IMG/VR virus record: IMGVR_UViG_2875713109_000001
Origin: a virus
Lineage: Duplodnaviria; Heunggongvirae; Uroviricota; Caudoviricetes
Length of the DNA: 64,000 nucleotides
Reading direction: 5' to 3' (one strand)
The notes under the pieces are model-generated. The model was not told the origin of the DNA. It searched no databases and saw only the letters and a list, made by a program, of their open reading frames with translations. How positions within the stretch are numbered: position 1 is the first letter of the stretch; every line of letters starts with the position of its first letter. Positions 19,075 to 20,840 of this stretch are shown in pieces. The position numbers and the translations under genes are program-made.

Positions 19075-19407
19075 TTAGTTACCTCTGATAGCGCGGTTGT
19101 AATCATTAACGTTGCGATTCTTCCTGTTAATCCCCATCAGCATCGTTTCTGTATCGAGGATATACGCTGGCAGATCATCAAAATATTCACTGCTAAACTC
19201 TGGCATCCTGCACATAAATGCACTTTTGGGGGCAGGGTGGTTAACCTTTGTCGGCGTCGGCGTTAAATTCGGTGATCGACTGCCGGAGCAACCGCTGAGT
19301 GTCAGCAGGAATGCGCTGGCGAACATTACCCGCCGCAACCAGTTGTTTCTGAACTTCAGCTTTTCGTTCCATTTGCCTGTCAGCATATTTGGCTTGTTCT
19401 GATTCAT
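19075..19407 (-). CDS. o-spanin-like lipoprotein (Rz1-like), overlaps the i-spanin-like gene
   Basis: Lipobox LTLSGC followed by Pro-rich PNLTPTPTKVNHPAPK; reading frame overlaps 3-prime end of 19241..19663 in another frame. Confidence 0.45.
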   Translation of the reverse strand: MNQNKPNMLTGKWNEKLKFRNNWLRRVMFASAFLLTLSGCSGSRSPNLTPTPTKVNHPAPKSAFMCRMPEFSSEYFDDLPAYILDTETMLMGINRKNRNVNDYNRAIRGN

Positions 19408-19663
19408 TTTTCACTTCCTGGCTGTGAAAATGTTGCTCTGCTTTGTTCATCGTCTCAATGGTCTGGTTAAGATCCATTATTGACTTATCACGTTCCTTAA
19501 CAGCCTGATCAAGACTGCCAATTTTCTCCATGGCTTGCTTTAGCTGATGACGTTCCCATGCAAACCCAGCACCAACAAGTGTGCAAATCAGAACAAGAAC
19601 ACCAGTAGCAGCAAGTTTCTCCTTCAAAGACAAAGCTGTTTTTAACGTAGAAAAGAATGACAT
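19241..19663 (-). CDS. i-spanin-like protein (Rz-like)
   Basis: ATG at 19663 with SD aggagga; N-terminal TM helix LAATGVLVLICTLVGAGFAW then coiled-coil periplasmic domain; ORF-track start 19690 is TTG. Confidence 0.5.
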   Translation of the reverse strand: MSFFSTLKTALSLKEKLAATGVLVLICTLVGAGFAWERHQLKQAMEKIGSLDQAVKERDKSIMDLNQTIETMNKAEQHFHSQEVKNESEQAKYADRQMERKAEVQKQLVAAGNVRQRIPADTQRLLRQSITEFNADADKG

Positions 19664-19702
19664 GTCTTCCTCCTGAAGAAAAATTATCAATGAAGTCCTT
19701 TG

Positions 19703-20491
19703 TTACTGTGCCGCTTTGTTTAATTCATCAAGAACAGAATCAGGAACCAAAGCGGCAACTGCGCTGGCTGTGCTGACCTTATTTGCTGATGCTTCCGCAA
19801 GCGCGGTACCGATAGCATGGTTATAAGCAGTTATGGCTACGTTGGCGCTTTCATTCGCTCGTTCATACTGCTGTTGTAACGCAGTTGTGGGCGCTGTTGT
19901 CTGGTTGAAAACAACCCCAAACTGTTCAGTTGCTACTTTCAGAGATTCAATTTGCTCTTCTGTTAGTGCTGGTGGGGGAGTGGCAGTGCCGCCGCCTGAA
20001 CCAGAGCCTGACGAGCTTCCTGAGCCAGTGTTAAGGGTCTGGTTAATCTCCCCCATAGCAGCGACTAAACTTGATGTATTAAGCGCGTTAACAGCGTCCT
20101 CAAGCGATTTAGTAATATTCACATCACCAATGGCAATAGAGATCGGCAGTTCTGAAACTTCTCGCTCATTAGCACGGCAGTAAACATCCCAACCAATATC
20201 GAGTTGAAGCAGCATTGACAGATCTGCATAACCAGCCAACAGGTCCGCGTGCTTAGTTGCCAGTTCTCCAATGTTCGTTAAGCCAGTTGTGGTTGTTCTG
20301 ATCGTTGAAACATAGCTGGTAATAGTGTCGGGATAGACAATTGTATCCAGAATTAATCCGGTCAATTCTTCTGCAAGCAGTTTTGCTGTGTTAGCACTGT
20401 TTCGTGCCGATGTTATGGCACCAGGTGTTTTCATCCCACCGGCGGCGGCCAATTTTTTATATGCGGATAACTGGTAGTCTTTTTCCAGCAT
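19703..20491 (-). CDS. hypothetical protein with Gly/Ser linker
   Basis: ATG at 20491 with SD aggaga; GSGSSSGSGSGGG linker. Confidence 0.45.
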   Translation of the reverse strand: MLEKDYQLSAYKKLAAAGGMKTPGAITSARNSANTAKLLAEELTGLILDTIVYPDTITSYVSTIRTTTTGLTNIGELATKHADLLAGYADLSMLLQLDIGWDVYCRANEREVSELPISIAIGDVNITKSLEDAVNALNTSSLVAAMGEINQTLNTGSGSSSGSGSGGGTATPPPALTEEQIESLKVATEQFGVVFNQTTAPTTALQQQYERANESANVAITAYNHAIGTALAEASANKVSTASAVAALVPDSVLDELNKAAQ

Positions 20492-20499
20492 GATATCTC

Positions 20500-20784
20500 C
20501 TAACTTACCTGAACCAGGCCGTCTCCGGACGCTACGGTAGATCCGCATGAAACAGGGTCACCAACGCATACGATCCCTTTACCATTGACGGTAAACCATG
20601 CCCTGGTTGATATAGCTTGCCCACCGTGCGTACTGTTTCCATCGGTATGCTGTGCATATTGCTTACCATCAACTAACACTTCGACTCCGTTGACTTTAAG
20701 TAGTGGTTCACTCTCTACAGGAGGCCTGGATGGGAATCCTCCGTGCCCCGAACAAATGCTGTCTTTTGTTGCAATACTTGCCAC
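20500..20784 (-). CDS. PAAR-like spike-tip protein
   Basis: 94 aa; SGHGGFP and VNGKGIVCVGDPVSCG match PAAR-repeat signatures; GTG start. Confidence 0.55.
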   Translation of the reverse strand: MASIATKDSICSGHGGFPSRPPVESEPLLKVNGVEVLVDGKQYAQHTDGNSTHGGQAISTRAWFTVNGKGIVCVGDPVSCGSTVASGDGLVQVS

Positions 20785-20816
20785 GTCATCACCAATTATT
20801 TGCTCTGGTTTTCGTT

Positions 20817-20840
20817 ATTTTAACTTAGGTTACTTGTGGT
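20817..20840 (-). promoter_or_regulatory. candidate Lpa-dependent late promoter
   Basis: Minus-strand read ACCACAAGTAAC-ctaagt-TAAAAT about 33 nt upstream of the PAAR-like gene. Confidence 0.4.

Follow-up and report, generated by a model that had tools for sequence, protein, structure and literature searches.

The genes lying beside oriR in the window (the entire 64,000-nucleotide stretch of DNA that was analyzed) constitute the minus-strand string upfC-upfB-ppfA-mlp-upfA, which is already described for phage P1 and is not new. In the reading that is considered very probable here, this P1 string specifies a needle tip, a tripod, and a predicted spanin pair, and its expression is presumed to be late. 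The P1 literature already contains the genes themselves, the assignment of UpfC to PAAR (for which a structure has now been solved), the tripod, and the prediction of spanins. The additions made here are small, comprising the conservation of the block, the gene order in distant relatives, and the reading of the neighboring replicon as an insertion. Beyond correct annotation, the analysis has little significance, with three points that may be of modest use.

Identity and transcription signals of the gene string

As judged from its sequence, the window represents a plasmid-prophage of the P1 type (Punavirus); the DNA of the region is 95-98% identical to that of P1, P7, and SJ46. With the P1 GenBank feature tables as the source of the P1 annotations used for comparison, the encoded proteins were found to be identical to those of P1 at 93/94 (UpfC), 253/281 (UpfB), 136/140 (PpfA), 106/110 (Mlp), and 123/130 (UpfA) residues, and every gene of the string is under purifying selection (dN/dS of 0.02-0.3 versus P1). 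In a published CRISPRi screen, knock-downs of all five genes identified them as non-essential, with that of mlp giving an EOP of 0.24; under laboratory conditions, plaques form without any of these genes being required.

The last gene of the string, upfA (18671..19063, minus strand; 130 aa), lies outside the region that had been covered by an earlier, sequence-only reading of this DNA. Its product belongs to PHROG 1453, a family of unknown function, and zero matches to it were obtained in Pfam or NCBIfam. A search for homologues found UpfA only in P1-like elements of E. coli and Salmonella, with many of the copies truncated, and provided no functional clue; the gene is missing from the diverged loci L006, L008, L010, and L011. 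A scan of positions 18000-21500 against Rfam returned nothing beyond sub-threshold eukaryotic lncRNA noise.

In the Lpa-dependent late promoters of P1, a 4-nt spacer separates a 9-bp -22 box from the -10 hexamer, and a -35 element is absent. A motif of this type occurs upstream of upfC at 20817..20835 (minus strand), comprising the -22 box AAGTAACCT, the spacer aagt, and the -10 hexamer TAAAAT, the last of which ends 32 nt upstream of the upfC GTG. The box matches the consensus AAGTGACTT at 7/9 positions, and the -10 hexamer is a good one. On a matrix of the nine annotated P1 late promoters, the motif reaches 12.4 bits, which is toward the low end for real sites (true sites give 3.5-18.1 bits when scored without being part of the matrix). 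By chance, approximately 3.5 such hits are expected in the whole window, and approximately 0.003 per given 100 nt of one strand. At the same site, reference P1 has a weaker box (AAATAATCT; 9.2 bits), and the P1 record has no late promoter annotated upstream of upfC; the diverged locus L006 has a strong late-promoter site (16.5 bits) in the corresponding position. The late operon that the sequence-only reading had proposed is plausible and in part borne out: the promoter-like motif is present, but it is weak and lacks an annotation in P1. Expression of the string is most likely late, from this weak Lpa-type promoter at 20817-20835, and transcription would run leftward from just past 20784 to the terminator at approximately 18640. 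The latter is an intrinsic terminator (18637..18657, minus strand) with a 9-bp stem, including five G-C pairs, followed by the T-run TTTTCACTTAT; it ends the string and abuts oriR.

A weaker promoter-like site, AAAGGACTT-catt-GATAAT, is located between upfB and ppfA (19683..19701, minus strand) and scores 10.6 bits on a six-site late-promoter matrix. In P1, the same GATAAT carries an annotation as the -10 of P1ppfA, a predicted sigma-70 promoter, and the P1 record predicts both P1ppfA and a further sigma-70 promoter, P2ppfA, inside upfB for ppfA. As far as its main text is concerned, a preprint on the P1vir transcriptome makes no statement on the operon of the string.

The PAAR-type protein UpfC and the helical protein UpfB

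The first gene, upfC (20500..20784, minus strand), starts with GTG and encodes a 94-aa tail-needle tip protein of the PAAR/gp5.4 type. In a phmmer search of the PDB, it was identical at 93 of its 94 residues to the solved needle-tip chain of P1 (9vyi_A, 'UpfC'; baseplate, 9vzk), which has the same length; the one substitution places S85 in the window protein and A85 in that of P1. The search also returned T4 gp5.4 (5iv5, E 8.6e-8; 4ku0, E 1.2e-7) and a PAAR structure from type VI secretion (4jiv, E 3.7e-4). Among family models, UpfC matches PHROG 281 (E 2e-30), while its score against Pfam PAAR_motif, 26.4 bits, is just below the 27-bit gathering score. A score of 36 bits against the NCBIfam T6SS_PAAR equivalog, for which the cut-off is 124, is as expected of a protein that does not come from a type VI system. 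The structure matches and the HMM search together confirm the PAAR-like protein that the sequence-only reading had recognized at this locus.

PAAR/gp5.4 tips reportedly carry an apical metal-binding cluster made up of three His and one Cys. Residues H14, H46, H53, and C80 of UpfC are invariant across seven diverged homologues (down to 35% identical), and the dN/dS of upfC versus P1 is 0.02. Two cryo-EM studies of P1 locate UpfC at the tip of the needle formed by gp5; a match of P1 UpfC to gp5.4 by HHpred has also been published, its deletion was viable, and it went undetected in published LC-MS/MS of P1 virions. Based on the structure of the 99%-identical P1 protein and its placement in the cryo-EM papers, UpfC caps the gp5 needle, and it would do so as a single-copy cone of the PAAR/gp5.4 type on the trimeric needle of the baseplate. 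UpfC shares significant sequence similarity with T4 gp5.4 and PAAR proteins, and that of P1 caps a trimeric gp5 beta-helix needle; unlike the T4 system, however, the partner gp5 of P1 has no lysozyme domain, and whereas many PAAR proteins of type VI secretion possess an extension or effector domain, UpfC is without one.

Gene 5 (29799..30431, minus strand) encodes the trimeric needle carrying UpfC and lies 9 kb from upfC. The separation of the PAAR-like gene from a hub-like gene, which had been pointed out earlier, is therefore real, the hub-like gene being P1 gene 5. Its product matches 'Gp5' of PDB 9vzk over its full length (residues 1-210; E 1e-136) and Phage_base_V weakly (21 bits).

The second gene, upfB (19703..20491, minus strand; 262 aa), likely has its true start at the ATG at 20491, with the open frame reaching 20548. 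Ahead of this ATG lies an AGGAG that shares nucleotides with the stop codon of upfC; with 8 nt separating the stop of upfC from the start of upfB, and a ribosome-binding site that covers the stop, upfB can be taken as translationally coupled to upfC. The protein with a Gly/Ser linker that had been noted earlier, whose open frame is 19703-20548 (minus strand), corresponds to P1 UpfB, the published 'tripod'; the two are 90% identical and share both gene position and the Gly/Ser linker. Within the string, UpfB has diverged furthest from its P1 counterpart, and it is without a solved structure. Its substitutions cluster after residue 120 (dN of 0.072 versus 0.011 in the N-terminal part). Positive selection was considered and rejected, given a dN/dS of 0.27 for UpfB as a whole and 0.30 for its C-terminal part, which is the more variable one.

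PHROG 1559 aligns to residues 20-281 of the long UpfB ORF; no Pfam or NCBIfam family was matched, and a sequence search of the PDB with UpfB gave noise only. An AF2 model (pLDDT 82.6) presents two helical bundles with a disordered linker, residues 158-169, between them, and the closest fold matches are generic helical bundles, including IncA, MLKL, NLR coiled-coil domains, SipB, and CAMP factor. It might be speculated that UpfC-UpfB and the lysis genes represent an old, conserved 'envelope-crossing' block in which UpfB, as a membrane-active helical bundle, would open or fuse the membranes of the host during entry and so be the counterpart to the spanins of exit; this proposal is regarded as quite improbable.

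In one cryo-EM study of P1, UpfB was assigned as three trimers, the 'tripod', on the UpfC cone by fitting of an AlphaFold3 model into medium-resolution density, and the all-helical UpfB of the window would likewise hang as a tripod on the UpfC cone. That UpfB instead serves as a tip assembly factor or chaperone, or has a separate role at the envelope, and is not a stable part of the virion (the tripod density being something else) would be consistent with the nature of that fit, with the published LC-MS/MS of P1 virions, which makes no mention of UpfB in its list of proteins, with an independent cryo-EM preprint that models the P1 spike without it, and with the finding that neither deletion nor knock-down of upfB in P1 produced a plaque phenotype. 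However, the low-copy tip proteins UpfC, gp5, and gp26 of P1 were all missed by the same mass spectrometry, and the published trimer model does fit into the density. The translational coupling of upfB to upfC and a near-universal linkage to PAAR genes also argue against a non-virion UpfB, which is considered unlikely. Among ten UpfB-family lineages, a PAAR gene encoding 94 aa is directly upstream in seven and within approximately 3 kb on the same strand in the other three; in L014 and L099, the PAAR-UpfB pair directly follows hub and base_V spike genes. This family-wide gene linkage supports UpfB as a partner of the PAAR tip independently of the density fit, and hence an assignment that otherwise rests on a model in medium-resolution density.

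PpfA and Mlp as a predicted spanin pair

Preceded by an AGGAGG ribosome-binding site, ppfA (19241..19663, minus strand) encodes a 140-aa protein that is predicted to be an i-spanin (the Rz equivalent) with the topology of an N-in/C-out type II membrane protein. Its hydrophobic segment spans residues 17-35 (mean Kyte-Doolittle value of 2.22), and the N-terminal tail is net positive, with three K/R versus one D/E. The periplasmic part is 35% charged, has a heptad-like spacing with 7/8 of the a/d positions filled, and contains no Cys. The gene for the predicted o-spanin (the Rz1 equivalent), mlp (19075..19407, minus strand), shares 167 nt, read in another frame, with the 3' end of ppfA and continues for 166 nt past that end, an arrangement of the 'overlapped' class. 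The Mlp precursor of 110 aa has an unusually long signal peptide of 39 aa and the lipobox LSG-C, with predicted cleavage before the Cys (codon starting at 19290) and Ser, not Asp, at +2. Among the 71 aa of the mature part are seven Pro, five of them within the first 22 residues, and one further conserved Cys.

PpfA matches the Rz-like spanin family PHROG 89 and Mlp the Rz-like spanin families PHROG 30284 and 456, with E-values for the pair of 7e-25 (PpfA) and 1e-75. In a curated catalogue (Kongari, 2018; Table S1), P1 gp064 ('OIS'), which is PpfA, and gp063 ('OOS'), which is Mlp, are entered under the class 'ovl', and the LipoP cleavage of P1 Mlp is given at residue 39 with the remark 'too long signal sequence'; the Mlp of the window is identical to the P1 protein around this site. 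The overlapped pair and the lipobox are kept in five lineages, though the i-spanins are only 16-49% identical. These data support the prediction of PpfA and Mlp as an overlapped two-component spanin. The Rz-like type II membrane coiled-coil protein and the overlapping Pro-rich lipoprotein of the sequence-only reading both stand and, as a prediction, so does their interpretation as spanins, given the PHROG matches of both proteins, the presence of all the topological signals, and the catalogue entry.

As with the P2 LysB/LysC type and the lambda Rz/Rz1 paradigm, a transmembrane segment at the N-terminus of the i-spanin is combined with a periplasmic domain that is helical and, as with other overlapped two-component spanins, the second protein is a small Pro-rich outer-membrane lipoprotein whose gene starts inside that of the i-spanin and runs past its end. 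PpfA/Mlp differ from P2/lambda-type spanins in the absence of Cys from the periplasmic part of PpfA, the presence of only one in Mlp, the 39-aa signal peptide, and a location apart from any holin/endolysin lysis cassette, a setting that is usual for spanins though not required of them; their neighbors in the window are upfB and upfA/oriR, and the lyz/lydD and lydA/lydB genes of P1 sit in other operons. Against the curated models of P2 LysB and LysC (NCBIfam TIGR03495 and NF038368), similarity is marginal, with scores of 18.2 and 12.8 bits versus cut-offs of 92.75 and 27, respectively. The pair shares the LysB/LysC architecture but falls into a different sequence family. Twin-arginine export of Mlp (LRRVMF) was considered and rejected, the RR not being conserved among homologues.

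Taken with the lambda Rz/Rz1 paradigm, the sequence features suggest a role in lysis. PpfA in the inner membrane and Mlp as an outer-membrane lipoprotein would form a two-component spanin bridging the periplasm and, once the peptidoglycan is gone through the action of the P1 endolysin, this complex would complete lysis by fusing the inner membrane with the outer one. Were PpfA and Mlp instead a prophage-expressed envelope pair, such as a surface-exclusion or membrane-modifying lipoprotein system, their position beside the plasmid replicon would be explained, and the lack of linkage to holin and endolysin genes, the sigma-70 promoters predicted inside upfB, the atypical length of the Mlp signal peptide, the LysB/LysC scores below cut-off, and the knock-downs without a clear plaque defect would all be in accord. 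Lambda Rz, however, was likewise non-essential in the same CRISPRi screen, and endolysin and holin-like genes occupy the same position in relatives. An envelope pair is rendered very improbable by these observations, together with the strength of the PHROG spanin matches and the co-occurrence of the full set of spanin hallmarks, namely a type II transmembrane protein whose periplasmic domain is charged and helical and an overlapping gene for a small, Pro-rich outer-membrane lipoprotein. A more general doubt arises from the ORF list, which holds many spurious short ORFs on both strands here: the lipoprotein frame that overlaps ppfA, or the remaining short ORFs, could be chance open frames and not genes. 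This view is refuted by the conservation data, as dN/dS is 0.02-0.3 (0.02 in upfC and, outside the overlap, 0.08 in mlp) and the alternate-frame lipoprotein with its lipobox is kept in five diverged lineages, with 22 invariant positions among four aligned sequences. Family and PDB matches likewise back the genes, and the probability of chance frames is negligible.

With regard to existing annotations, many deposited P1-like records present the block incorrectly, with, for example, a truncated 46-aa 'Rz1' that lacks the lipobox or a shortened upfC, and one paper swaps the i- and o-spanin labels.

Gene order beside oriR and in relatives

As the sequence-only reading had observed, the lysis-type genes sit beside the plasmid replicon: repA is located at 17493-18353, and oriR comes directly after the terminator of the string. 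A scan of IMG/VR with the UpfB alignment recovered close relatives only (at least 90% identity), and the distant relatives of UpfB came from a profile search and contig look-ups. The PAAR-UpfB-spanin block is kept in P1-like elements in which UpfB is only 44-60% identical and the downstream neighbors are different. The order hub-spike-PAAR-UpfB-lysis genes-capsid-sheath is retained among relatives that are more distant; in these, the PAAR gene directly follows the hub and spike genes, and endolysin/holin-like genes are found at the position of ppfA/mlp.

In several relatives, the capsid gene directly follows the block, and the P1 replicon therefore looks like an insertion into the string. This gene order suggests that the plasmid-maintenance module of P1 was inserted into an ancestral late-gene string encoding tip proteins, lysis proteins, capsid, and sheath. 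Insertion of the replicon into such an old string is the best explanation for the position of the spanin genes, and it would account for the presence of lysis-type genes next to oriR.

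Gene content and coding capacity of the string

Bases 18600-21000 of the window matched 23 phage records, most of them with full query cover and 95-99% identity; these include P1 (95.3% to the reference record NC_005856), P7, SJ46 and RCS47. Together with the surrounding genes, which comprise parA, repA, the incA/incC iterons, hrdC and a 754-aa Dmt methyltransferase, these DNA matches identify the window as a P1-type (Punavirus) plasmid-prophage. Each of the elements that the sequence-only reading had described between 19075 and 20840 was found, which confirms its observation and supports its interpretation; they correspond to P1 upfC, upfB, ppfA and mlp, which lie on the minus strand with upfA after them. 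All essentials have already been published for P1 and the window is a close P1 variant, and hence the finding was already known.

The string opens with upfC (20500-20784; 94 aa), which has a GTG start. The upfB frame is open over 19703-20548, but its product is most likely the 262-aa protein starting at the ATG at 20491, because an AGGAG overlapping the upfC stop precedes this codon, and the PHROG 1559 alignment to the long frame begins only at residue 20. An AGGAGG ribosome-binding site precedes ppfA (19241-19663; 140 aa), and mlp (19075-19407; 110 aa) overlaps it by 167 nt in a different frame. The last gene, upfA (18671-19063), is followed by a good intrinsic terminator (18637-18657, minus strand), which closes the string at the very border of oriR. 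The terminator abuts the DnaA-box end of oriR (about 18409-18650, by offset from P1); transcription of the string points at the plasmid origin but terminates just short of it.

Identities to reference P1 are 93/94 for UpfC, 253/281 for UpfB, 136/140 for PpfA, 106/110 for Mlp and 123/130 for UpfA. Low dN/dS values against P1 (upfC, 0.02; upfB, 0.27; the non-overlapping part of mlp, 0.08; upfA, 0.22) indicate that these four are real genes under purifying selection. In a genome-wide CRISPRi screen, upfA, mlp (EOP 0.24), ppfA, upfB and upfC all scored as non-essential. UpfA homologues are confined to P1-like elements of E. coli and Salmonella, and many database copies are shortened or have altered ends (78-159 aa); upfA gives the impression of a dispensable accessory gene at a rearrangement-prone junction beside oriR.

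UpfC and UpfB

The proposal of a PAAR-like protein held for UpfC. PHROG 281 ('PAAR motif') matched it at 2e-30, and Pfam PAAR_motif scored 26.4 bits, just below the 27-bit gathering score. Residues H14, H46, H53 and C80 are invariant across seven aligned homologues, the most distant at 35% identity, and would fit the His3Cys metal site of PAAR proteins. The best match among solved structures is 9vyi_A, itself named UpfC (93/94 identical), followed by T4 gp5.4 (5iv5, 4ku0; E about 1e-7) and the PAAR protein 4jiv (E 3.7e-4). HHpred tied UpfC to gp5.4, and upfC deletion gave normal plating (PMC9024508); in two cryo-EM studies, a single P1 UpfC caps the tip of the trimeric gp5 needle (PMC12810830; bioRxiv 2025.07.21.665459). 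The literature settles UpfC as a gp5.4/PAAR-type needle tip. The gpV/VgrG-like gene noted at 29799-30431 proved to be gene 5, the gp5 needle gene, with a full-length match to 9vzk 'Gp5' (E 1e-136) and a weak Phage_base_V match.

The Gly/Ser-linker protein is UpfB, for which sequence searches of Pfam, NCBIfam and the PDB returned no relative. A confident AF2 model built from a 12-sequence alignment (pLDDT 82.6, pTM 0.77) is all-helical, with two bundles joined by a disordered GSGSSSGSGSGGG linker. A 2026 cryo-EM paper assigns UpfB to a tip-anchored 'tripod' made up of three trimers, on the basis of an AlphaFold3 trimer fitted into density of medium resolution (PMC12810830); a later paper repeats the assignment. 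Published virion mass spectrometry does not mention UpfB, and also missed UpfC, gp5 and gp26 (PMC9024508). Of the proteins of the string, UpfB (19703-20491) differs most from its P1 counterpart, at 90% identity; its changes cluster around and after the linker (residues about 121-262), where dN/dS is just 0.3, and database variants span 240-262 aa, apparently through linker indels.

The predicted PpfA/Mlp spanin pair

The Rz-like type II membrane protein and overlapping Pro-rich lipoprotein emerge as a predicted spanin pair from topology, lipobox and overlap, and PHROG spanin families matched both PpfA (7e-25) and Mlp (1e-75). PpfA, the predicted i-spanin, starts with an N-terminal tail of net positive charge and has a single hydrophobic segment (17-35); its periplasmic domain (104 aa) is charged, shows heptad character and contains no Cys. 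Mlp, the predicted o-spanin, carries the lipobox LSG|C with Ser at +2, compatible with predicted outer-membrane sorting, and a 71-aa mature part with a Pro-rich start and one further Cys, invariant among homologues. Curated P2 LysB/LysC models gave marginal matches below cut-off; the architecture is shared, but the sequence family is therefore another. In Table S1 of Kongari et al. 2018, P1 gp064/gp063 appear as an i-/o-spanin pair of the overlapped class; LipoP cleavage of the o-spanin falls at residue 39, with the comment 'too long signal sequence'. This signal peptide (residues 1-39; 19291-19407) has a roughly 27-residue basic N-region, and its length is conserved, its sequence partly so, across four aligned diverged homologues. 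The P1 spanins were named from predicted features only (Bednarek et al. 2022, PMC9025707); the labels there, ppfA as o-spanin and mlp as i-spanin, are reversed and contradicted by the sequence features. Lambda Rz was likewise non-essential in the CRISPRi plaque assay, and so the result for ppfA and mlp is no argument against a spanin role. In the related locus L002 (MH422554), annotation errors at 1957-2097 and 3382-3561 comprise a 46-aa 'Rz1' without lipobox and a upfC shortened to 59 aa.

Transcription signals and gene order

The late promoters that the P1 record annotates (9-bp -22 box, 4-nt spacer, -10 hexamer) supplied a position matrix with which matches were scored. The motif proposed upstream of the string is present at 20817-20835(-) as AAGTAACCT-aagt-TAAAAT, scoring 14.3 bits with a six-site matrix and 12.4 with a nine-site one and ranking about eleventh in the window; real P1 late promoters left out of the matrix scored 3.5-18.1 bits. 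By chance, about 3.5 such scores are expected in the whole window, and 0.003 per given 100 nt of one strand. The P1 record, however, annotates no late promoter for upfC-upfA, and reference P1 has AAATAATCT at this position (9.2 bits); the record lists only the divergent C1-controlled Pdmt and, within upfB, two sigma-70 promoters predicted for ppfA. In the diverged locus L006, AAGTAACTT-tcca-TACACT forms a strong site of 16.5 bits, 20 nt upstream of the PAAR gene, and this, with the scores in the window, makes late expression of the string likely.

A C1 repressor operator, ATTGCTCTAATAAATA (20865-20880, plus strand), corresponding to P1 Odmt/Op68, is located in the intergenic region that separates upfC from the divergent uhr-hrdC-dmt operon, so that this region has an early C1-controlled promoter rightward and the late-promoter-like motif leftward. 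The mechanical ORFs for uhr (20881-21237, plus; 118 aa) and hrdC (21116-22135, plus; 339 aa), both with TTG starts, exceed the P1 annotations (94 and 301 aa), probably reflecting upstream alternative start codons and not real extensions. The strongest late-promoter matches elsewhere (15.6-20.8 bits) are at 56771-56789(+), 34580-34598(-) with 34590-34608(+), 48067-48085(+), 14712-14730(-), just upstream of gene 23, 2638-2656(-), 32875-32893(-) and 6611-6629(-); several are identical or nearly so to annotated P1 LPmat, LP26/LPpmgL, LPpac and LPsit.

The lysis-type genes do adjoin the plasmid replicon, as had been noted: one strand carries, still in the order kept by the relatives described below, upfC, upfB, ppfA, mlp, upfA, oriR, repA, parA, parB, gene 23 and gene 22. 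The UpfB family is small: clustering at 90% identity gives 48 groups, a set of 1.84 billion proteins contains 89 representatives, and nearly all full-length members have 236-265 aa. Gene neighbourhoods were compared in ten of its lineages. Five P1-like elements with UpfB proteins 44-60% identical or more divergent (L006, L008, L010, L011 and L097) carry a 94-aa PAAR-type gene immediately upstream of the UpfB gene. In the first four, UpfB is followed by an i-spanin and an overlapped, lipobox-bearing o-spanin ORF, and upfA is absent. The gene that comes next varies: in L008 it is repA/parAB, the same as in P1; in L006 it is the major capsid gene, with 56% identity to gene 23, and then the sheath gene; and in L010 and L011 it is different again. 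L013, L015 and L098 have the PAAR gene 1-3 kb upstream of UpfB, with a few genes between, and capsid and sheath directly after UpfB. The most distant, L014 and L099, have hub, base_V spike, PAAR, UpfB, membrane protein, endolysin (GH108 or Amidase_3) and holin-like protein, with the capsid gene next in L099. From this synteny, the simplest reading would be an ancestral late string into which the plasmid-maintenance block, together with upfA, was inserted, splitting the lysis genes from the capsid gene, while rearrangement parted genes 5 and 6 from the tip genes. Near the PAAR/UpfB genes, L013 (1547-1888), L015 (4473-4817) and L014 (6850-7188) encode a conserved 112-114-aa membrane protein, with a weak, sub-threshold Pfam GTA_holin_3TM match in the two of these three that were scanned; L013 and L015 also share a conserved 168-171-aa protein nearby.
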